Source: Deltaproteobacteria bacterium (GTDB taxonomy: Bacteria > Desulfobacterota > Deferrisomatia > Deferrisomatales > BM512). Taken from it: 64,000 bases of DNA. Of this stretch, positions 26,512 to 34,375 are shown one piece after another; the stretch's first letter is position 1, and every line of letters starts with the position of its first letter. Made by a program: the position numbers and the translations under genes. The stretch spans positions 95 through 64,094 of the forward strand of contig PKTT01000031.1 of assembly GCA_002869015.1 (NCBI GenBank). The letters run 5' to 3'. The notes under the pieces were generated by a model. It searched no databases. It was not told the origin of the DNA and worked only from the letters and a program-made list of their open reading frames with translations.

Positions 26512-27534
26512 ATGGACACTGAGTTTCACTACTGGATGACCGGAATCATCGCCAAGGCGGCGGGGTTTGAAGAGTCGGAAGCTAAAACAATCGCCTATGC
26601 CTCAGAGTATGTCGATGAAAACGACAGGTCCATAAAAGTTCTGGACCGTTCAAATGGGGAGGTTTACGAAAACTTCATCAGCCAGACGATGAATATCCTA
26701 AAGCCCAAAAGTGAGTTGATGCGCATCTACCCGATTTTCCACTTTCTTCCCGGCGACCCGCAAGCCGATACAGCCAGAAGAAGAGATGGAAAGATGCATA
26801 TTCTAAACACGACCCCCAACAACGAAAACGCCAATAAACTTATGGATGAAGCGTTTGGGGCGGATGAGGAACTCCGGCTATACAGGATAGGCATAGCCAC
26901 CCATGCCTTCGCCGACACATGGGCGCATCAGAACTTCGTCGGGTGGTATGATTATTTCAACAACATAGGGCTTGATGTAAAACCCGACATTGGACATGCG
27001 GATGGCGAACACCATCCCGACTGGCCCGCCCACAGGTGGGTTGACGAGCGCCTGGTCGATGCCCAGCTGGACAACCGGCACCGTTTCCTCTCAGCCGCTG
27101 AAGCAATCTTCAAGCGTTATTGCGCCTACCAAGCCTCTATCAACCGGGAAGATAAAAGCGCAGAGTGGGAAGCGCTTGAGACAAGGCTTGATGACGCTAT
27201 GGGCAAAGGCTTCACCGGCAGCGAGAATTTCTATAAAGAGGAGCGCATAGAAAAATACAAGGCCCTTCTCGGCGACGGCTGGGAGGATTTCGACGAGATG
27301 GTCTGGTTCGACGAGGCCATAGAAACAGAGGTTCGGGGCCTAAGGGATCCGGGAGATGGATTAACAGCGCTGTTTACCCTGTTTCACGACAAATACTATT
27401 GGAAAGAGGGGCTGGACAAACGCGCTACAGAGTGGTTTCGCTTTCAGACCTCTGTGAAAGCGCACGAAATGAAAGCTGTCGAGATACTGGCGCCAACCTT
27501 CGCCAGAATGGGCATAATGCTGGGCAACGCATAA
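26512..27534 (+). CDS. Uncharacterised His-rich protein (possible metal-dependent hydrolase fold) in a lower-GC islet
   Basis: A 340-aa ORF with an AAGGAG Shine-Dalgarno. His motifs are FHYWMTG, HFLPGD, ATHAFADTWAHQNF and GHADGEHHPDWPAHRW. By eye its composition is clearly more AT-rich than its neighbours. Confidence 0.6.
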   Translation: MDTEFHYWMTGIIAKAAGFEESEAKTIAYASEYVDENDRSIKVLDRSNGEVYENFISQTMNILKPKSELMRIYPIFHFLPGDPQADTARRRDGKMHILNTTPNNENANKLMDEAFGADEELRLYRIGIATHAFADTWAHQNFVGWYDYFNNIGLDVKPDIGHADGEHHPDWPAHRWVDERLVDAQLDNRHRFLSAAEAIFKRYCAYQASINREDKSAEWEALETRLDDAMGKGFTGSENFYKEERIEKYKALLGDGWEDFDEMVWFDEAIETEVRGLRDPGDGLTALFTLFHDKYYWKEGLDKRATEWFRFQTSVKAHEMKAVEILAPTFARMGIMLGNA

Positions 27535-27633: not shown

Positions 27634-28092
27634 TCACTTCTTCCTGCACGCCAACATATAGTTGTACCCATGCCGCATTACGAGCGCCCCCTCCTGATTA
27701 GACACCTCGCACCTAACTGTCGCAAAACCATTGCCCGGCCTTGTCTTTGAGCGCCTCATATCCGTCCAGTGCGCATTGACTGTGAGAAGATCGCCCGGCC
27801 GGACAGGATGATAAAGAATGGCTTCCTCTATACCAACGCCAGTCAGGATCACCGCTCCGTCGAGCGCTTCGACGACTACTTTGGTGCAGGCCGACAGGGT
27901 GTGCAGGGAGGAGGCAACCAGCCCCTTGAAGATGGAGGCGTTGGCGGAGTCCTCATTGACATGAAAGGGCTGCGGGTCGAAACGGCGGCCAAACTCAAGT
28001 ATCTCCTCCCGGGTGAACTTTACGGGGGCGCAGTTAAGGACCTCTCCCTCTTTTATATCCTCGAAATATCGCGATTCCATGCGCCGTCTCAC
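27634..28092 (-). CDS. MaoC-like (R)-hydratase / hotdog-fold protein
   Basis: PQPFHVNEDSA...GLVASSLHT matches the MaoC dehydratase motif. The start is either the GTG at 28092 or the ATG at 28080. Confidence 0.8.
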   Translation of the reverse strand: MRRRMESRYFEDIKEGEVLNCAPVKFTREEILEFGRRFDPQPFHVNEDSANASIFKGLVASSLHTLSACTKVVVEALDGAVILTGVGIEEAILYHPVRPGDLLTVNAHWTDMRRSKTRPGNGFATVRCEVSNQEGALVMRHGYNYMLACRKK

Positions 28093-28093
28093 T

Positions 28094-29194
28094 TTAAGAA
28101 AATTTGTCGTAGAAGATTTCCTCTTCCCTGATGCCTCTCTCAGTCATCGCCTCTATGCAGGCGTCTATCATCCCCGGCCCGCCGCAGAGGTACCCCTCCA
28201 TACCCTCCATTGACTCGAAGAGCCGCCCGGCGACGTCGGTGACCAGGCCGACTTCTCCCTCCCACCGCTCCTCTTCACGGGGAGAGGAGAGCGCCGGTAC
28301 GAAGCGGAAGTTTGGAATCGTCTCCTCATAGCCGCGCATCTTATCAAGGTCGTAGAGGTCGTCACCATTTACTGCGCCAAAGATGAGGGTGACATTTTTT
28401 TCGTTCTTGTGAGCCGCCATGTCGGCGAGGATCGCCTCGAAGGGGGCGAGGCCGGAGCCGCCCGCGATGAAGATTGCTTCGGCTGGAGTATCTCGAAGGT
28501 AGAAATCTCCATAGGGGCCGGAGAGGGTTAGCTCATCATCGACCTCAATGAGGTCATGGACAAAGGTAGTCGCAACGCCCCGCTTCACCCTGCGGATGAT
28601 CAGATCGATGGAGCTCTTCTCCTGCGGGGGCGAAGCTATTGAGTAGGCGCGCTGTGTGGGTGCCGGCAGTCCATCGTAGATTGGCGTCTCAAGCTGGACG
28701 TACTGACCCGCCCTGAATGAAAACTCCACCCCCTCTCCAAAGGTAAGGGTTACCCTCATGGTGTCGTGGTTCAGGGGCTCCGCGCCCGTGACGAGCACCT
28801 CATACTCCTCTATATCAAGGAGCTCCGTGGGGACCTCGACGACAAGGTTCTCGCGAACTTTTATCTGGCAGGAGAGGCGCACATTCTCCCCACGCTCCTC
28901 CTCCGTTAGGTGCGGCGCTTCGGTGGCGAGTATCTTCCCGCCGCCCTCGAACACCTTGACCTTACACATTCCGCAGCTGCCCCGCCCGCCGCACGCGGAG
29001 GGCACCAATACTCCCTCATCCTTTAGCGCGCCCAGCAGGGAGCCTCCCCCCTCAATCTCTTTTGGCTCGGCGTCGTTGAGCTTCAGGGTAACCGGCCCCG
29101 CCTTTATAATAAGCTTCTCCACGATGACGATCACCAGCGCCAGCGCGACGCTGATGCCCGTGACGACGAGGAGCGGGGTGAGGGAGAAATCCAT
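28094..29194 (-). CDS. nqrF: NqrF-type reductase subunit (N-terminal TM helix, plant-type 2Fe-2S ferredoxin, FNR-like FAD/NADH module)
   Basis: A TM helix is followed by CGGRGSCGMCKV...RLSCQ (2Fe-2S), RAYSIAS (FAD binding) and GGSGLAPF (NAD binding). Confidence 0.85.
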   Translation of the reverse strand: MDFSLTPLLVVTGISVALALVIVIVEKLIIKAGPVTLKLNDAEPKEIEGGGSLLGALKDEGVLVPSACGGRGSCGMCKVKVFEGGGKILATEAPHLTEEERGENVRLSCQIKVRENLVVEVPTELLDIEEYEVLVTGAEPLNHDTMRVTLTFGEGVEFSFRAGQYVQLETPIYDGLPAPTQRAYSIASPPQEKSSIDLIIRRVKRGVATTFVHDLIEVDDELTLSGPYGDFYLRDTPAEAIFIAGGSGLAPFEAILADMAAHKNEKNVTLIFGAVNGDDLYDLDKMRGYEETIPNFRFVPALSSPREEERWEGEVGLVTDVAGRLFESMEGMEGYLCGGPGMIDACIEAMTERGIREEEIFYDKFS

Positions 29195-29206
29195 ATCGTC
29201 CCTCCC

Positions 29207-29800
29207 CTACACCGGCACCATGCCGGAAAAGCCGATGAAGGCTAGCGCCATTATCCCGGTGATGATCAGAGTTATGCCAGGGCCCTCCAGCGCCGGGTGG
29301 ACCCTGGAGCGCTTCATTTTCTCCCTTAGCCCCGCGAGGGCGATTATGGCAAGAGCCCAGCCCAGCCCGCTCCCAGCGCCGTAGGCCACTGAGGTGACGA
29401 AGCTGTACTGCCTAATAACCATGAAGAGGCTTACGCCGAGGATTGCGCAGTTAACGGCGATTAGCGGCAGGAAGATGCCGAGGAGGTAGTAGAGGCCGGG
29501 GGTGTACTTCTCCATAACCATCTCGACCAGCTGCACCGTCGCCGCGATCACCACGATGAAGGCGATGAAGCGAAGATATTCAAGCCCCAGCGGGAGCAGC
29601 ACAAGGTCGTAGACGAGGTAGTTTAGCGCGGAGGTAATCGTCATCACGAAGACTACCGCCATCCCCAGCCCCGCCGCGGGGCGCACCGACTTGGAGATGC
29701 TGAGGTAGGAGCACATCCCCAAAAAGTTGGTCAGCAGGATGTTATTGATGATTATTGAGGCGATGAAGACGGTAATCGCGCTTGGCTGTCCGTTCATCAA
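29207..29800 (-). CDS. NqrE/RnfA-family membrane subunit
   Basis: Contains FLGMCSYL and GIFLPLIAVNCAILG motifs. It mixes RnfA-like (LEYLRFIAFIVVIA) and NqrE-like (YSF..SV.YG.GSG.GW) features. Confidence 0.9.
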   Translation of the reverse strand: MMNGQPSAITVFIASIIINNILLTNFLGMCSYLSISKSVRPAAGLGMAVVFVMTITSALNYLVYDLVLLPLGLEYLRFIAFIVVIAATVQLVEMVMEKYTPGLYYLLGIFLPLIAVNCAILGVSLFMVIRQYSFVTSVAYGAGSGLGWALAIIALAGLREKMKRSRVHPALEGPGITLIITGIMALAFIGFSGMVPV

Positions 29801-30423
29801 TCCCTCCTCTCAGGCGGCAGGAGGCTCCTAAAGAGCCAGACAGTGAGCCCCAGCATAAAGAACGCCCCCGGCGGCATAACCATAATCGTCCAGCGAGCAA
29901 ACCCGTCGCCGAGGACTTGATGGCCGAGGAGCGTGCCAAACCCCAGGAGTTCCCGCCAAAAAGCTATAAAAAGTAGCACCACCGAATATCCGACTCCCGC
30001 AGCGGCGCCATCCAGGAGCGCGGGGATTGGCGGATTGTGATAGGCGAAGGCCTCACAGCGGCCCATTATTATGCAGTTGGTTATTATGAGGCCCACATAG
30101 GGGCCGAGGGTTGCGCTTATCTCCGGGTAGTAAGCCTTAATCGCCAGATCGACGCAGATGACGTAGCTGGCGATGATAAGCACCTGCGCCATTATCCTCA
30201 CGTCTCGCGGAGTGTATTTCCTAAGCAGACTTACAGTGAAGCTGGACATTGCCGCGGTGAAGAAAAGCCCCGCGCTCATCACCAGAGTATTGGCTAGGAG
30301 GTTGGTCACCGCCAGGGCGGAGCAGATTCCCAGCACCTGCCTGAAGACTGGATTCTCATCCCAGATGCCGCGCCTGATGGTGGAGAGCGTAACGTTCTTT
30401 CTGATCGCCTTTATGGTGCTCAT
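29797..30423 (-). CDS. NqrD/RnfE-family membrane subunit
   Basis: Contains NPVFRQVLGICSALAVT and LIITNCIIMGR motifs. ATGA overlaps occur on both sides. Confidence 0.9.
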   Translation of the reverse strand: MSTIKAIRKNVTLSTIRRGIWDENPVFRQVLGICSALAVTNLLANTLVMSAGLFFTAAMSSFTVSLLRKYTPRDVRIMAQVLIIASYVICVDLAIKAYYPEISATLGPYVGLIITNCIIMGRCEAFAYHNPPIPALLDGAAAGVGYSVVLLFIAFWRELLGFGTLLGHQVLGDGFARWTIMVMPPGAFFMLGLTVWLFRSLLPPERRD

Positions 30424-31043
30424 TTGGCATCCCCTCCGGCGAATACGCCCCGCTTTGAGAGGTCAGCCAGAAATGGATTGATGAACCCGGCGAAGCGCGA
30501 AGAGGTCTGCGTCGCGCCCGTCACCGCCTCAACCTCATTGGCTGCAACGGGCTCGCGGTAGACGAAGGAGAGCGGCGCGCTCTTTGAGCTATCAATTCTC
30601 TTGCCCCTGAACTGCTCAGTGAACCACTTCTCTGAGATTCTCCCCCCGAGGCCGGGCGTCTCCTGGTGGCTGATTATCGAAAGTCCAAGGAGGGTGTTGC
30701 CGTCGGGAGCAACCGCGACTACCCCCCTTACGGGCCCCCAGAACCCCGGCGCCGTGAAGGGAAAAGCGTACCCCTTGAGGGCGCCCTCTACATCGCTGGC
30801 GCTATAATATTCCCCCGAGGGCCCCGACTTCTCGGATACCCTTGCACCCCAGAGCTCGGCGAGCGCCTGCGGGGATTCGGGGGCTTTGATTCCCAGCGCC
30901 TCAAGCACCCTTGAACGCTGGGCAGCCACCCTCCCCTGCTCAACCTTCTCGCGGGTGTACTGCTCGACGCCGGAGACAGCGCCGCCGAAGAAGACCGCCA
31001 ATAATGCGATGAAGAGTATCGAGTAAAGTGGAGACTTATTCAT
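30420..31043 (-). CDS. NqrC/RnfG-family FMN-binding subunit
   Basis: One N-terminal TM helix and the covalent-FMN threonine motif VTGATQTSS. The 207-aa length is RnfG-like. Confidence 0.8.
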   Translation of the reverse strand: MNKSPLYSILFIALLAVFFGGAVSGVEQYTREKVEQGRVAAQRSRVLEALGIKAPESPQALAELWGARVSEKSGPSGEYYSASDVEGALKGYAFPFTAPGFWGPVRGVVAVAPDGNTLLGLSIISHQETPGLGGRISEKWFTEQFRGKRIDSSKSAPLSFVYREPVAANEVEAVTGATQTSSRFAGFINPFLADLSKRGVFAGGDAK

Positions 31044-31998
31044 GGGCAGCCTCCACCTTCCTCATCGACTTGAGCCCCTTGATGCCCATCTCGGCGATGG
31101 GGCCGAAGGTGTTGCCTAAGAGAATGGCGAACATAGTCCCCTCGGGGAAGTTCCCGAAATTTCTTATGAGCATAATCGAGAGGCCGATTATCGCCCCGTA
31201 GGCTACCTTCCCCTCCTTTGAGGCGACGGCGCTGACAGGGTCGGTCGCCATAAAAAAGACGCCGAAGAGGAGGCCCCCGGCGAAGATTGCGTAAGCTGGA
31301 TTTAACGGCGCCCCCCACCCCATCAGATAACATGTTCCCGCGGCGGCAAAGTAGGTTACAAGCGCCGAGATAACTATCTCCCGCGAAGCGACCTTTTTGT
31401 AGAGGAGATATAGCCCGCCGAGGATTACCAAAACGGCGGAGGACTCTCCTATGCAGCCGGGGATACGGCCGATGATGAGGTCGACGAGGTCTCTTCCGCC
31501 GCCTGAGGCCATCGCGGCCAGTGGCGTAGCGCCTGTAACTGCTTCATGGGGGCCGTAAAAGATAAATCCTGCGATGGGGCCCCGGAGAGGTTCAAACCAG
31601 GCTCCGGTTATCTGGGCGGGAAAGGAGACGAAGATGAAAGCGCGCCCAACCAGCGCGGGGTTGAAGAGGTTTCTTCCGAAGCCGCCGAAGAGCTCCTTGC
31701 CGAAGGCAACGCCGACAACCGCCCCCACAGCGGCAATCCAGAGGGGGATGCCGGGGGGCAGCGTGAGCGCCAGAAGGGTTCCGGTGACGAATACCGCCTC
31801 CGTAACAGCTTCACCCCGTTTTTTCGTAAAGTAATACTCAGTTGCGTAGGCTGCGATGTTAGTAGTAAGGAGGATTAGCAGCGCCCGCCAGCCATAAAGA
31901 TATATTGAGAAGATGACAAGCGGCGCGATTGCGCGAAGCACGGTGCTCATCACCGGCTGCCTTTTTATCCACGGCAATTTTTTTACATCGCTGCTCAT
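31036..31998 (-). CDS. NqrB/RnfD-family membrane subunit
   Basis: A polytopic protein with the covalent-FMN motif VTGATPLAAM. I preferred the ATG at 31998, which has an AGGTGAG Shine-Dalgarno. The roughly 320-aa length is RnfD-like. Confidence 0.85.
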   Translation of the reverse strand: MSSDVKKLPWIKRQPVMSTVLRAIAPLVIFSIYLYGWRALLILLTTNIAAYATEYYFTKKRGEAVTEAVFVTGTLLALTLPPGIPLWIAAVGAVVGVAFGKELFGGFGRNLFNPALVGRAFIFVSFPAQITGAWFEPLRGPIAGFIFYGPHEAVTGATPLAAMASGGGRDLVDLIIGRIPGCIGESSAVLVILGGLYLLYKKVASREIVISALVTYFAAAGTCYLMGWGAPLNPAYAIFAGGLLFGVFFMATDPVSAVASKEGKVAYGAIIGLSIMLIRNFGNFPEGTMFAILLGNTFGPIAEMGIKGLKSMRKVEAAHE

Positions 31999-32005
31999 CT
32001 TAGTC

Positions 32006-32434
32006 TCACCTGTTACCAACGCCTATCGGCACAACCGCCAGAGTTTGGCTGAGTCTGGCCACCTCACGGCCGTCACCGCCCCACACCTTGCCCTCTGTAA
32101 AAATTATGGATTTACCGGCTCGCACCACCTCGGCGCGGCAAGTGAGGCGCGGCCCCATAGCCGGGCGAAGCATGGAAATCTTGAACTCTACCGAGAGAAC
32201 CGTCTGGTCCCGCCTACAGGAGGTCCATCCGGCGCCACCCCCGGTATGGTCGGCGAGGGTTGCGAGCACCCCCGCGTGGACAAAGCCATCTTGCTGCGTC
32301 ATCCTCTCGGAGACATTCAGCGCCGTCTCCACATAATCCTCACCGACAGCGGTCAGCTCTATCCCCATCTCGCGCACGAAAGCAGCACGAAAGAAGAGCT
32401 CTCTAAGCCAATTGGGGTCTTGCGATGAAGGCAT
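32006..32434 (-). CDS. PaaI/YigI-family hotdog thioesterase
   Basis: Contains GFVHAGVLATLADHTGG and a length of 142 aa. It lies immediately upstream of the nqr/rnf-like genes on the same strand. Confidence 0.8.
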   Translation of the reverse strand: MPSSQDPNWLRELFFRAAFVREMGIELTAVGEDYVETALNVSERMTQQDGFVHAGVLATLADHTGGGAGWTSCRRDQTVLSVEFKISMLRPAMGPRLTCRAEVVRAGKSIIFTEGKVWGGDGREVARLSQTLAVVPIGVGNR

Positions 32435-32523: not shown

Positions 32524-33096
32524 CTAAGAGGCCCCGCCTATCTCCTGGGCGAAGGTTATGGCTTCCTTCTTAACACCCTCTCCCAAATCCTCCGGCGCCG
32601 CGCACCTTCCGATGAAGAGCTCCCCGGCCTTGACCGCCATGTGTGGCCTCTGAAGGCGGTTGAAAGCTGTAAAGGTTGCCTCGGCGTTGTTCTCCCAGGG
32701 CCCCGCGCCGGTAACGAGGAGCGCCTGGCGCTGTCCCTCGACCAGTGAGGCATGGGTCGGCTGATGGTAATCGATATAAAGGGAGTAGCTTCTGTCTATA
32801 AGTGATTTTAGCGGCCCGGCCACACCCCAGAAGTAGAGGGGCGAGGTAAAGAGCACCAGCTCGGCGGCAACCATCTTCTCAAGTATCGAAATGGCGTCGT
32901 CTTTTATAACGCACCCAACTTCATCAGCCTTTCCCTTGCACTTCATACAGGCAAGGCAACCTTTTATATCCTTATCCTGCAAAGTGATCCGCTCGACCTC
33001 ATGGCCCATGCTGCCAAGCTCCTCAACTACCCATCCGGTAACGGTGGAGGTATTGCCGCTCTTTCTGGCCCCACCCTCTAAAACAAGAACCTTCAT
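32524..33096 (-). CDS. Flavodoxin-like / iron-sulfur flavoprotein (Isf-like) FMN reductase
   Basis: MKVLVLEGGARKSGNTS is a NADPH-dependent FMN reductase N-terminus. A compact Cys cluster (CLACMKCKGKADEVGC) resembles that of Isf proteins. Confidence 0.75.
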   Translation of the reverse strand: MKVLVLEGGARKSGNTSTVTGWVVEELGSMGHEVERITLQDKDIKGCLACMKCKGKADEVGCVIKDDAISILEKMVAAELVLFTSPLYFWGVAGPLKSLIDRSYSLYIDYHQPTHASLVEGQRQALLVTGAGPWENNAEATFTAFNRLQRPHMAVKAGELFIGRCAAPEDLGEGVKKEAITFAQEIGGAS

Positions 33097-33760: not shown

Positions 33761-34375
33761 TTAAAGCCCCTTAGCGGGCTCAATGGCGTCGAAGGTGCAG
33801 TATTCGGCGCAGCGGCCGCATTCAAGGCAGCGGGAACCGTCCACAACATATATCTCACCCTTTGATATAGCGCCGACGGGACACTCGGGCTCACACGCCC
33901 CGCAAGCTGTGCAAGCCTTGGTTATAAAGGCTCCGGGAACCGAGGGTTCCTCTCCGCCGAAGGCGAAGCGCTCTCTTTCGGGCAGCCCGCCGGAGAGGTC
34001 GAACAGCTCCCCACGCCCTCTGTAGAGTTGGAATACTTCAAGGATGTCGTCCTTGCCTCCGGGGTAGAGTTGTGAGAGCACCGGGTTGTCGATGAATATC
34101 TTCTCTCTCACCTTGGGGTCGGAGTTGGGGCGGACATCGCCTACAACGCGCACGGAGACCCACTCCGGGGTCATCGCTGTAACGGCTACAACTTCACCCT
34201 CTATTATCTCACGGTAAAATGGTTTTCCCCGCCCGGTGAGGAAGTATAGCCCCTCATCATCGACCATCATCACGTCAATTATCCGTGCCGAGGGGACTCC
34301 CTGCTCCACTGTCGCGAAGGTAACGGATTTGATCTCCCTGAGGTAGGCCAGAGCCCTTTTGGCTAACTCATCCAT
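33761..34375 (-). CDS. PNPOx-like FMN-binding domain fused to a 2x[4Fe-4S] ferredoxin domain
   Basis: The N-terminus has a split-barrel-like sequence (VTFATVEQGVPSARIIDVM...LYFLTGRGKPFY). The C-terminus has CTACGACEPECP and CLECGRCAEYC motifs. Confidence 0.8.
   Translation of the reverse strand: MDELAKRALAYLREIKSVTFATVEQGVPSARIIDVMMVDDEGLYFLTGRGKPFYREIIEGEVVAVTAMTPEWVSVRVVGDVRPNSDPKVREKIFIDNPVLSQLYPGGKDDILEVFQLYRGRGELFDLSGGLPERERFAFGGEEPSVPGAFITKACTACGACEPECPVGAISKGEIYVVDGSRCLECGRCAEYCTFDAIEPAKGL

Follow-up and report, generated by a model that had tools for sequence, protein, structure and literature searches.

The operon carried by the 64-kb stretch of DNA analysed here (the window) probably belongs to an NqrA-less, short-NqrF 'BCDEF' clade of the Rnf/Nqr superfamily and encodes an NADH-oxidising membrane complex. 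This NqrA-less class is already known, being widespread and noted in genome papers of 2014 and 2018; the genus studied here differs in having lost the sixth gene X and gained two acyl-CoA hotdog genes at the operon ends. The preliminary description of this DNA had recognised the hybrid character and the lack of NqrA, and both stand. Its five-subunit complex does not describe the class, its evolutionary intermediate is not the preferred reading, the flanking hotdog genes are weak evidence for coupling, and RnfC and RnfB, absent from the window as it said, are encoded elsewhere in the genome.

Gene calls placed seven packed genes between 32434 and 27634 (Table 1), joined by overlaps of 4-14 nt or gaps of 7-13 nt, and together with Pfam and subfamily profile scores they bear out the seven-gene minus-strand order described earlier. 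The start of B is more likely the ATG at 31998, which gives 320 aa and matches the sister-species locus L010, and the start of the MaoC-type gene is more likely the ATG at 28080 (148 aa). A candidate sigma70-like site lies at 32500-32472, 5' of the PaaI-type gene.

Table 1. Genes of the operon and its upstream context gene, in positions of the window.
Gene product	Position	Strand	Length and remarks
FMN_red-family flavoprotein (context gene)	32524..33096	-	same strand, 90 nt upstream of the PaaI-type gene
PaaI-type / 4HBT hotdog thioesterase	32434..32006	-	142 aa; first gene of apparent operon; genus-specific addition
B, NqrB/RnfD-like membrane subunit	32019..31036	-	327 aa as called
C, NqrC/RnfG-like	31043..30420	-	207 aa; N-terminal membrane anchor and extracytoplasmic FMN-binding domain
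D, NqrD/RnfE-like membrane subunit	30423..29797	-	208 aa; half of intramembrane 2Fe-2S site
E, NqrE/RnfA-like membrane subunit	29800..29207	-	197 aa; other half of intramembrane 2Fe-2S site
F, short-form NqrF	29194..28094	-	366 aa; TM helix, 2Fe-2S ferredoxin and FNR-like FAD/NADH domain
MaoC-type (R)-hydratase-like hotdog protein	28092..27634	-	152 aa as called; genus-specific

Locus L010, from an independent MAG of a sister species (BM525), keeps the identical order Isf-like, PaaI, B, C, D, E, F, MaoC with 83-98% amino acid identity per gene, and the locus is therefore not an assembly artefact. The operon is intact and its genes are under purifying selection, with dN/dS values against L010 of 0.02-0.09 for B-F (0.02 for D and 0.03 for E) and 0.05-0.14 for the flanking genes (0.05 for the PaaI-type and FMN_red genes, 0.14 for the MaoC-type gene). 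The sequencing runs containing the stretch were DNA metagenomes only.

The mixture of Rnf and Nqr features noticed earlier is confirmed, with B and C Rnf-like in length, D and E leaning towards Nqr, and F having a true NqrF architecture. Subunit B matches Pfam NQR2_RnfD_RnfE (PF03116) with 297 bits and exceeds the cut-off of rnfD TIGR01946 (243 bits, cut-off 207), while it stays under that of nqrB (221 bits, cut-off 414). Subunit C gives 52 bits with FMN_bind, 79 with nqrC and 74 with rnfG, and D and E give 195 and 188 bits with Pfam Rnf-Nqr. D reaches 229 bits with nqrD NF006777 (cut-off 235) versus 170-186 with the rnfE models. As had been said of subunit E, RnfA and NqrE signatures are mixed in it, the nqrE (228 bits, cut-off 247.55) and rnfA (221 bits, cut-off 229.3) scores both falling under their cut-offs. 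F combines the Pfam domains Fer2, FAD_binding_6 and NAD_binding_1, and scores 240 bits with nqrF TIGR01941 (cut-off 295). At the ends, the PaaI-type protein matches 4HBT (Pfam, 61 bits) and TIGR00369 (65.8 bits), and the MaoC-type protein matches Pfam MaoC_dehydratas (56 bits) and retains the hydratase motif DPQPFH.

B aligns over its full length to C. tetanomorphum RnfD (7zc6_D), whereas its alignment to V. cholerae NqrB is confined to residues 132-397; its N-terminus is short and RnfD-like, with no NqrB N-terminal extension. The residues T165, D260 (V. cholerae D346) and E310 (V. cholerae D397) are kept, and the FMN threonine is present in 24/24 class members and the riboflavin-binding Asp in 23/24. 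The flavinylation motifs named earlier were found at B 162-167 (TGATPL) and C 175-181 (TGATQTS), the equivalent of C T178 being Thr in 23 of 24 class members, and the genome also encodes an ApbE flavin transferase (G000:C34:5274-6071). Judged from the determinants as read from Hau 2023 (PMC10643135), the NQR-type quinone pocket is not conserved in the B sequence: G141 is replaced by Y58, N156 by T and F159 by V, and about 48 aa precede the pocket versus about 130 aa in NQR. Replacement of G141 does not preclude quinone because this Gly is not universal in NQR, 5 of 25 NQR sequences having Leu. Cysteines C34 and C117 of D are invariant across all 67 aligned sequences, and C30 and C118 of E are invariant too. 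The alignment of F with V. cholerae NqrF (8a1t_F) extends from the TM helix through the C-terminal Phe. F lacks the stretch around V. cholerae residues 176-205 (about 299 residues from the Cys motif to the C-terminus versus about 339 in NQR), and contains the family-invariant Cys68/74/77/109, RAYS 182-185, GGSG 245-248 and F365. The window, like 24 members of the class, keeps every cofactor ligand, so the complex very probably functions as an ion pump that oxidises NADH.

As claimed previously, the window lacks NqrA, RnfC and RnfB: tblastn gave no match to NqrA or RnfC within the 64 kb, and the sole match of an RnfB seed was to the ferredoxin domain in a PNPOx-Fer4 protein (33761-34375). The genome-wide search proposed in the preliminary description had a divided outcome. 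No NqrA was found anywhere in the genome, a 95%-complete MAG in which a missing gene might fall in a gap, while RnfC and RnfB are encoded on contig C54, as part of a canonical rnfABCDGE operon that is complete. Of 30 genomes that carry the class, a single one has an above-cut-off match to the NqrA model and six have no NqrA/RnfC-like match of any sort; a canonical rnf operon is co-encoded in most.

The class is a large clade, present in at least 549 species genomes. The B-C-D-E-F order was found in 80 loci spread over at least six phyla, none of these loci having an adjacent gene for A, C (RnfC-type) or RnfB, and the complete seven-gene order in the genus of the window and L010. In a concatenated B+D+E tree (67 taxa, 718 columns; IQ-TREE, LG+C20 PMSF), the class falls inside neither RNF nor canonical NQR but forms a separate clade (support 100/99); NQR itself receives 100/100 and hybrids plus NQR 100/97, all F-bearing forms split from RNF with 100/100, and the F tree is congruent. 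The class is sister to NQR plus the forms whose A subunit is still RnfC-like and Fe-S-bearing, with RNF outside, the RNF outgroup being drawn solely from genomes also carrying the class. On this topology, secondary loss of the A/C subunit is the most parsimonious explanation, and the suggestion that the operon represents an evolutionary intermediate is disfavoured; B, C and F keep ancestral short forms.

Compared with Na+-NQR (NqrABCDEF; V. cholerae 7xk3, 8a1t), the operon shares the NqrF module of TM helix, 2Fe-2S and FNR-like FAD/NADH domain, the four Cys of D and E for an intramembrane 2Fe-2S cluster, the flavinylation threonines in B and C, the riboflavin Asp, the C-terminal acidic residue of B, the order B-C-D-E-F and a core on the NQR side of the RNF/NQR split. 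It differs in its separate clade, in having no NqrA, in the changed pocket positions of B and in the lack of about 80 N-terminal residues of B, including the amphiphilic helices that close over quinone; C and F are shorter by about 40-60 and about 40 aa, respectively, and all five subunits miss the NCBIfam NQR equivalog cut-offs. With Rnf (RnfABCDGE; C. tetanomorphum 7zc6, A. woodii 9eri, A. vinelandii 8ahx) it shares the full-length, above-cut-off likeness of B to RnfD, the lengths of B and C, and the same membrane core and cofactors. Unlike Rnf, the operon has no RnfC and RnfB, its core is set apart by the 100/100 branch, and a true rnfABCDGE operon is separately encoded in the same genome; as the input module is NqrF, the donor would be NADH and not ferredoxin.

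Fe-S-A NQR-type operons (loci L107, L108 and L220) resemble the window operon in their short-form NqrF, B-C-D-E core and anaerobe hosts. In contrast, they keep an A/C subunit that bears the two [4Fe-4S] motifs of RnfC, matches the nqrA model with 122-130 bits and includes an RnfC-type ferredoxin domain; the NQR-type GG/N/F pocket residues are present in their B, and they are sister to canonical NQR and not to the class described here. One of these operons falls in the phylum of the window. The two-subunit 'NQR/RNF-like' systems (Meheust et al. 2021, 2024 preprint) likewise have NqrB/RnfD- and NqrC/RnfG-like parts and an NAD-binding domain without A/C; however, that domain is fused to B, D and E are missing and B has no flavinylation site, whereas in the window D, E and F are genes of their own and the B site is kept.

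The five-gene arrangement had been noticed before: nqrBCDEF without nqrA was annotated in Thermotoga thermarum and T. lettingae (PMC4148951, 2014), Clostridium ultunense (PMC5924567, 2018) and 'Ca. Izimaplasma' ZiA1 (PMC6256511, 2018). These clusters have the same five genes in the same order, no nqrA and a co-occurring canonical Rnf, and from their descriptions and the clostridial members of the tree we infer that they belong to the same clade. The reports consist of annotation only, mention no sixth gene and give the acceptor as unknown. The window's genus differs from them in lacking X and in carrying hotdog genes at both ends.

Of the 81 related loci whose sequence continues beyond F, 79 have the gene X (about 152 aa) after it, and the claim of a five-subunit complex consequently fails for the class. 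X has a confident structure model with no PDB match. Five sister genomes contain it, with matches at about 1e-56, as does the same-family genome L219, whereas G000 and G023 gave no match at E<=1. Thus, the genus has lost the otherwise constant sixth gene of its class; since two independent genomes of the genus both lack it, a gap effect is unlikely. X is missing only from this genus, where the MaoC gene sits in its position. Loss of X may mean altered function, or dependence on another partner.

Judged by homology from the solved structures of NQR and RNF, NADH would reduce FAD in F, and electrons would move on first to the 2Fe-2S cluster in F and next to the one that D and E bind within the membrane, reaching the covalent FMN on outward-facing C, the covalent FMN in B and finally the riboflavin in B; by analogy, the complex would run in this direction and couple the path to Na+ or H+ export. 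In view of the lack of both an NqrA/RnfC-type subunit and an NQR-type quinone pocket, electrons would exit from the B riboflavin. The acceptor, proposed tentatively, might be menaquinone, bound at a site unlike that of NQR in this X-less, menaquinone-making lineage; it ranks first among the candidates, narrowly ahead of a soluble protein. Only 11 of 31 host genomes have a MenG/UbiE match above the cut-off, among them the window genome and order-level relatives; as over half of the hosts are without it, the class as a whole cannot depend on quinone. This deficit speaks for a soluble cytoplasmic redox protein instead, such as the FMN_red flavoprotein, the PNPOx-Fer4 protein or a rubredoxin-type protein, a somewhat unlikely acceptor here. 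Electrons would then feed O2/peroxide detoxification or another soluble reductase while energy is conserved, an equally uncertain role. It is consistent with this that B is RnfD-like, and RnfD in RNF donates electrons to a cytoplasmic subunit (review PMC12174285). Moreover, the FMN_red and PNPOx-Fer4 genes lie directly upstream on the same strand in both the window and L010. The 131 immediate neighbours of related operons include four rubrerythrins and three desulfoferrodoxins, above chance by rough estimate; however, such neighbours occur at only about 10% of loci and none is constant. Furthermore, X, the presumed adaptor, is missing in this genus, and rubredoxin-type CxxC pairs occur in none of the 81 X proteins sampled. 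The FMN_red protein (Pfam FMN_red, 71 bits; kept at the same position in L010) has a putative likeness to iron-sulfur flavoproteins, judged from its compact Cys motif C47-x2-C50-x2-C53-x7-C61; it gave no NCBIfam match and weak PDB matches only.

Exit on the outer face, from the C FMN to a periplasmic or extracellular acceptor with B mainly structural or ion-conducting, is improbable. It would fit the absence of any cytoplasmic output subunit, and the outward-facing flavinylated domain of C recalls ApbE-dependent extracytosolic electron-transfer systems (Meheust 2021, PMC8238504), but the near-complete conservation of the B FMN threonine and riboflavin Asp would be needless if electrons ended at C, and no conserved periplasmic partner gene adjoins the operons. 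Least credible is an alternative membrane core borrowing RnfC and RnfB from the C54 operon as a second Rnf or a chimera. The complete rnf operon there, the canonical rnf of most hosts and the RnfD-like architecture of B would allow it; however, D, G, E and A subunits are already encoded in the C54 operon itself and share only 33-49% identity with their counterparts in the window, six of the 30 host genomes have no RnfC/NqrA-like match, NqrF is already an input module, and NADH input with NAD+ output would be a futile cycle. Functional partnership of the hotdog proteins, with the MaoC-type protein replacing X at the cytoplasmic face, coupling to acyl-/enoyl-CoA metabolism and the pump possibly reversed during fatty-acid or aromatic-acid oxidation, is very unlikely as well. 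The MaoC gene lies exactly at the X position with similar length, PaaI and MaoC are within 7-13 nt of B and F in the window, and both are under purifying selection and kept in the sister species. Nevertheless, the flanks, which had been taken to hint at acyl-CoA coupling, are weak evidence for it because they are confined to one genus and absent from the other loci. No hotdog family, 4HBT included, is among the most frequent families (at least two members) of the 131 immediate neighbours of related loci. In addition, L010 has a spacer of about 180 nt between F and MaoC, the MaoC-type protein is unrelated to X (hhalign probability 0.3%), and hotdog hydratases and thioesterases are not known to carry a redox cofactor. 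MaoC orthologues (about 60% identity) in same-order genomes sit elsewhere, away from BCDEFX operons. As read from ORF translation, these orthologues adjoin a putative AraC-type regulator gene.

The preliminary description proposed a seven-gene minus-strand operon of hybrid Rnf/Nqr character, and both proposals were borne out, the former by open reading frames over the same interval and by Pfam and NCBIfam, which upheld all seven gene assignments (Table), and the latter by the family scores. B passed the NCBIfam rnfD subfamily cut-off (243 vs. 207) and missed that of nqrB (221 vs. 414); it was the only subunit to clear an Rnf subfamily cut-off, and all five subunits stayed under the NCBIfam NQR equivalog cut-offs. 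C scored 79 bits with nqrC (cut-off 144) and 74 bits with rnfG, D scored higher with nqrD (229, cut-off 235) than with rnfE (170–186), and E was near balance between nqrE (228, cut-off 247.55) and rnfA (221). F is a short form that fell below the nqrF equivalog cut-off (240 vs. 295); its three Pfam domains provide an NqrF-type NADH input with a TM helix, 2Fe-2S and FAD/NADH parts, and its residues 9–365 align to 8a1t_F. The PaaI-type protein matched 4HBT at 61 bits (gathering score 20.6) and the MaoC-type protein matched MaoC_dehydratas at 56.5 bits (gathering score 27), with no specific NCBIfam equivalog cut-off reached by either. B more probably starts at the ATG at 31998, which gives 320 aa, the length found in the sister species (locus L010, isolate BM525), and the MaoC-type gene more probably starts at the ATG at 28080.

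Table. Positions of the genes and gene clusters discussed (window coordinates unless a locus or contig is named)
Feature	Position	Strand	Length or remarks
PaaI-type thioesterase	32434..32006	minus	142 aa
B (NqrB/RnfD-like)	32019..31036	minus	327 aa
C (NqrC/RnfG-like)	31043..30420	minus	207 aa
D (NqrD-like)	30423..29797	minus	208 aa
E (NqrE-like)	29800..29207	minus	197 aa
F (NqrF-like)	29194..28094	minus	366 aa
MaoC-type protein	28092..27634	minus	152 aa
FMN_red-family flavoprotein	32524-33096	minus	C47-x2-C50-x2-C53-x7-C61 motif; small, soluble
PNPOx-Fer4 protein	33761-34375	minus	PNPOx-like domain fused to 2x[4Fe-4S] ferredoxin domain; small, soluble
His-rich protein	26512-27534	plus	340 aa; DUF6765 full-length, 226 bits
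X, example	L012:9135-9602	plus	
X, example	L011:9120-9584	plus	
X, example	L013:9116-9574	plus	76 further loci
rnfA-B-C-D-G-E	C54:7789-2729		window's own genome
rnf operon, then nuoA-B-C-D	C54:20-7789		same strand
nuoA-B-C-D-H-I-J-K-L-M-N	G000:C30:72001-81743		window's own genome; without nuoE, F, G

As the preliminary description had stated, NqrA, RnfC and RnfB are absent from the window: tblastn found no NqrA or RnfC there, and the RnfB query matched only the ferredoxin domain of the unrelated PNPOx-Fer4 protein. The source genome, in which the window corresponds to contig C22, is a 2.53-Mb, 95%-complete MAG from a bioreactor metagenome, and the nqrA model TIGR01936 found nothing above its cut-off genome-wide. 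The best match (42 bits) was the RnfC of an rnf operon, and an nqrA elsewhere in the genome was rejected, as the search recovered RnfC only. The absence thus extends to the whole genome for nqrA and is confined to the window for rnfC and rnfB, the sole copies of which lie in a complete canonical rnf operon that the preliminary description had missed. The D, G, E and A subunits of that operon are only 33–49% identical to those of the window, and the window cluster is therefore a distant paralogue and not an Rnf fragment. Since the same gene order is found in the independent MAG of the sister species, the operon is not an assembly artefact. The sequencing runs that contain this stretch are DNA metagenomes only.

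The F subunit (366 aa) has thousands of homologues of equal length, and at least 549 of 185,579 species genomes were confirmed by a pattern scan to carry B-C-D-E-F operons, which makes this class very widespread in anaerobes. Its carriers belong to Spirochaetota, Clostridia, Planctomycetota, Lentisphaerota/Kiritimatiellota, Mcinerneyibacteriota and Deferrisomatales-type bacteria. Among 84 annotated loci, the order B-C-D-E-F was found in every locus with room for it, and A, C or RnfB was never adjacent; the window shows the same order, with no A/C or RnfB alongside. Operons of nqrBCDEF without nqrA have been noted in Thermotoga thermarum and T. lettingae in 2014 (PMC4148951) and in Clostridium ultunense in 2018 (PMC5924567), and have been listed for 'Ca. 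Izimaplasma' (PMC6256511). The main evolutionary study of NQR (Reyes-Prieto 2014) did not include the A-less class, no functional study of it was found in the literature, and the 'NQR/RNF-like' systems of Meheust 2021 (PMC8238504) differ from it in having a two-subunit design. The class is already known from genome papers but uncharacterised, while the window operon is a new, X-less and hotdog-flanked variant of it. A major family of redox-driven ion pumps has two textbook representatives, Rnf and NQR, and this class would add a third.

The preliminary description viewed the complex as five-subunit; A is truly absent, but the sixth gene of the family, X, had been missed. X (~152–157 aa) directly follows F in 79 of the 81 loci with downstream sequence, and the only X-less loci are the window and L010, in both of which a MaoC gene fills its position. 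The invariant residues of X (L012 numbering) are G23, D28, R30, G86, P91, K100, H122, F129, G132 and P141, with zero invariant cysteines. Neither Pfam nor NCBIfam gave a match to X, and its AlphaFold2 model, which is very confident (pLDDT 96.3, pTM 0.90), retrieved nothing from the PDB by Foldseek at E<0.001. Of 81 sampled X ORFs, none was fused to a rubredoxin. The X profile found nothing at E<=1 in the whole genomes of the window and L010, and tblastn in the window's genome returned noise only, whereas the same profile detects X at ~1e-56 in five sister-clade genomes and X is kept in a same-family genome of another genus (L219); X was therefore lost within the window's genus. The MaoC gene was considered as a divergent X and rejected, with an hhalign probability of 0.3% and 12–21% identity in a MAFFT alignment. 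In six of 30 BCDEF-X host genomes (G003, G012, G015, G018, G025 and G029), the nqrA model, able to pick up RnfC as well, had no match, and these hosts, mostly MAGs of unstated completeness, may lack Rnf too.

The position of the class was examined in a concatenated tree of B/RnfD, D/RnfE and E/RnfA (718 columns; IQ-TREE LG+C20 PMSF), with supports as ultrafast bootstrap/SH-aLRT and the root on RNF assumed, not inferred. It comprised 24 class members, 25 canonical nqrABCDEF operons spanning many phyla, 16 canonical rnf operons, a narrow sample taken mostly from the class members' own genomes, and two hybrids with an RnfC-like A subunit, B-C-D-E and a short F. The window's subunits do not fall inside the canonical Nqr clade (100/100) but belong to a separate one, the A-less class (100/99), and a branch of 100/100 parts the window core from the 16 RNF cores (RNF clade 100/100), that of its own genome included. 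The two hybrids group together (100/99) and with NQR (100/97), and all NqrF-bearing forms separate from RNF (100/100). The nearest relatives of the window are L010, then L012 (Deferrisomatales MAG), L017 (Thermodesulfobacteriota MAG) and L021. The F tree recovers the same three groups as the core tree and places the window inside the class (SH-aLRT 96), from which it follows that NqrF was gained a single time and has since evolved together with the core.

The A subunits of the hybrids score 124–130 bits on nqrA and carry the C-terminal 2x[4Fe-4S] domain of RnfC, and the A subunit of a further hybrid from the window's phylum (L220, genome G055) scores 241 bits on rnfC. When RNF is taken as the outgroup, the most economical account would be that an Rnf-type core kept RnfC and exchanged RnfB for NqrF. 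On the branch to NQR, A would then have lost its cofactors, B gained an N-terminal extension and F gained ~40 aa; on the other branch, which is this class, A/C would have been dropped and X acquired. The tree and the Fe-S-A forms would thus order the rise of NQR from Rnf, with the gain of NqrF first and the loss of A cofactors later, and present the class as a branch that split off and dropped A/C. To call the complex an evolutionary intermediate was therefore an overreading; the complex instead represents a 'minimal' sister lineage, itself derived, in which B, C and F keep their ancestral short forms. The operons of hybrids L107 (genome G020) and L108 (genome G004) end in a conserved helical protein of ~151 aa with no family match, and L108 has extra genes between E and F, including a radical-SAM-like ORF. 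Within the class, the core-tree branch to the X-less pair measures 0.52 substitutions per site and that of the X-containing sister group 0.18. Compared with same-family L219, D and E of the window are 73–75% identical and F only 58%, and B is 53% identical to that of same-order L221; B and F may have changed faster after the loss of X.

All of the cofactor ligands established by NQR and RNF structures are retained, both in the window and throughout the class. These are Cys68/74/77/109, RAYS, GGSG and the C-terminal Phe in F, C34 and C117 in D, C30 and C118 in E, T178 in C, and T165, D260 (the riboflavin-binding D346 of V. cholerae) and E310 (D397 of V. cholerae) in B. The flavinylation motifs are TGATPL at residues 162–167 of B and TGATQTS at residues 175–181 of C, and ApbE, which is needed to attach FMN to both, is present in the genome. 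By homology with established structures (reviewed in PMC12174285; Hau 2023, PMC10643135), electrons would pass from NADH to FAD and then 2Fe-2S in F, on to the intramembrane 2Fe-2S of D/E, and from there to FMN on C, FMN on B and riboflavin in B, presumably coupled to ion export. For B–F, comparison of the window with L010 gives dN/dS of 0.02–0.09. The window offers a natural variant: its genus is the only sampled one that has lost X as well, yet all cofactor ligands are kept under strong purifying selection. Either the complex can do without X, or the role of X can pass to a different partner.

In both known pump classes, the output side is formed by a subunit that this class does not have, and identification of its acceptor would alter how energy is budgeted in many fermenters and syntrophs. 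In V. cholerae NqrB, quinone lies at the rim, where it contacts L138, G141, N156 and F159 beneath a lid of two N-terminal amphiphilic helices (PMC10643135). Class B subunits start ~80 residues later, without these helices, and ~48 residues precede the pocket motif in the window vs. ~130 in NQR. The pocket positions hold F/V/Y/L (G141), S/T (N156) and V (F159) across the class and Y58, T73 and V76, respectively, in the window, where the NQR quinone site is thus not recognizable; the Fe-S-A hybrids retain the NQR-type pocket residues. Of 31 host genomes, only 11 had a MenG/UbiE match above the cut-off; the protein is missing in the spirochaete and clostridial hosts and present in the window's genome and its order-level relatives. 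Quinone is therefore ruled out as an acceptor common to the whole class. The MenG/UbiE orthologue in the window's genome does make menaquinone available, and for this X-less, menaquinone-making genus, reduction of menaquinone at a non-NQR site is possible, although we hold this reading only tentatively.

Reduction of a soluble flavoprotein or rubredoxin-type protein in the same genus is a rather doubtful proposal. In the window and L010, an FMN_red flavoprotein bearing a compact four-Cys motif and then the PNPOx-Fer4 protein lie upstream on the same strand in conserved order; the former has no NCBIfam match and only weak PDB matches. Among 131 immediate neighbour genes of 70 operons, no constant neighbour names an acceptor. 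Rubrerythrin (4 genes) and desulfoferrodoxin (3 genes) occur at a minority of the loci, in numbers that seem above chance by a rough, uncomputed estimate. Periplasmic exit of electrons from C is disfavoured by the strict conservation of the flavin sites of B and appears quite unlikely in this genus, and a hotdog-linked substrate would be a highly improbable acceptor. Tentative as it is, menaquinone at a non-NQR site is the reading that we prefer for the window's genus.

The two hotdog genes had been taken as a hint of coupling to acyl-CoA metabolism, which overreads an association with BCDEF confined to one genus. The PaaI-type and MaoC-type genes are real, conserved in the sister species and subject to purifying selection (dN/dS 0.05 and 0.14, respectively); in that species, a spacer of ~180 nt parts F from MaoC. 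In same-order genomes, the MaoC orthologues (~60% identity) lie on other contigs, with X still after F; in one of these genomes (G048), the orthologue adjoins a putative AraC-type regulator and an Fe-S protein, as read from ORF translations. Hotdog families are not among the neighbour families listed for the other operons (131 neighbours, 70 operons). In L205, a MaoC gene also follows a canonical nqrF, but 1.2 kb downstream rather than adjacent, and was taken as a coincidence. The hotdog genes may thus be linked functionally to acyl-CoA metabolism, but this is weakly supported. It is very unlikely that the MaoC-type protein, maybe with the PaaI-type protein, replaced X as the cytoplasmic partner in a class with swappable outputs and a non-quinone acceptor. 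If true, NADH-driven or ion-gradient-driven reverse electron transfer would be tied to a step that handles CoA thioesters, and the BCDEF(X) clade would stand beside Rnf and NQR as the third functional kind of pump in the family. The gene for the His-rich protein converges on the operon at its MaoC end.

The genome carries two nuo clusters, one without nuoEFG and the other divided across contig ends. The former, on contig C30, would encode an 11-subunit complex I without the NADH module. The latter begins with nuoA-B-C-D, placed directly after the rnf operon on contig C54, and continues on contig C3; it is unusual for two ion-pumping complexes to be encoded side by side in this way.
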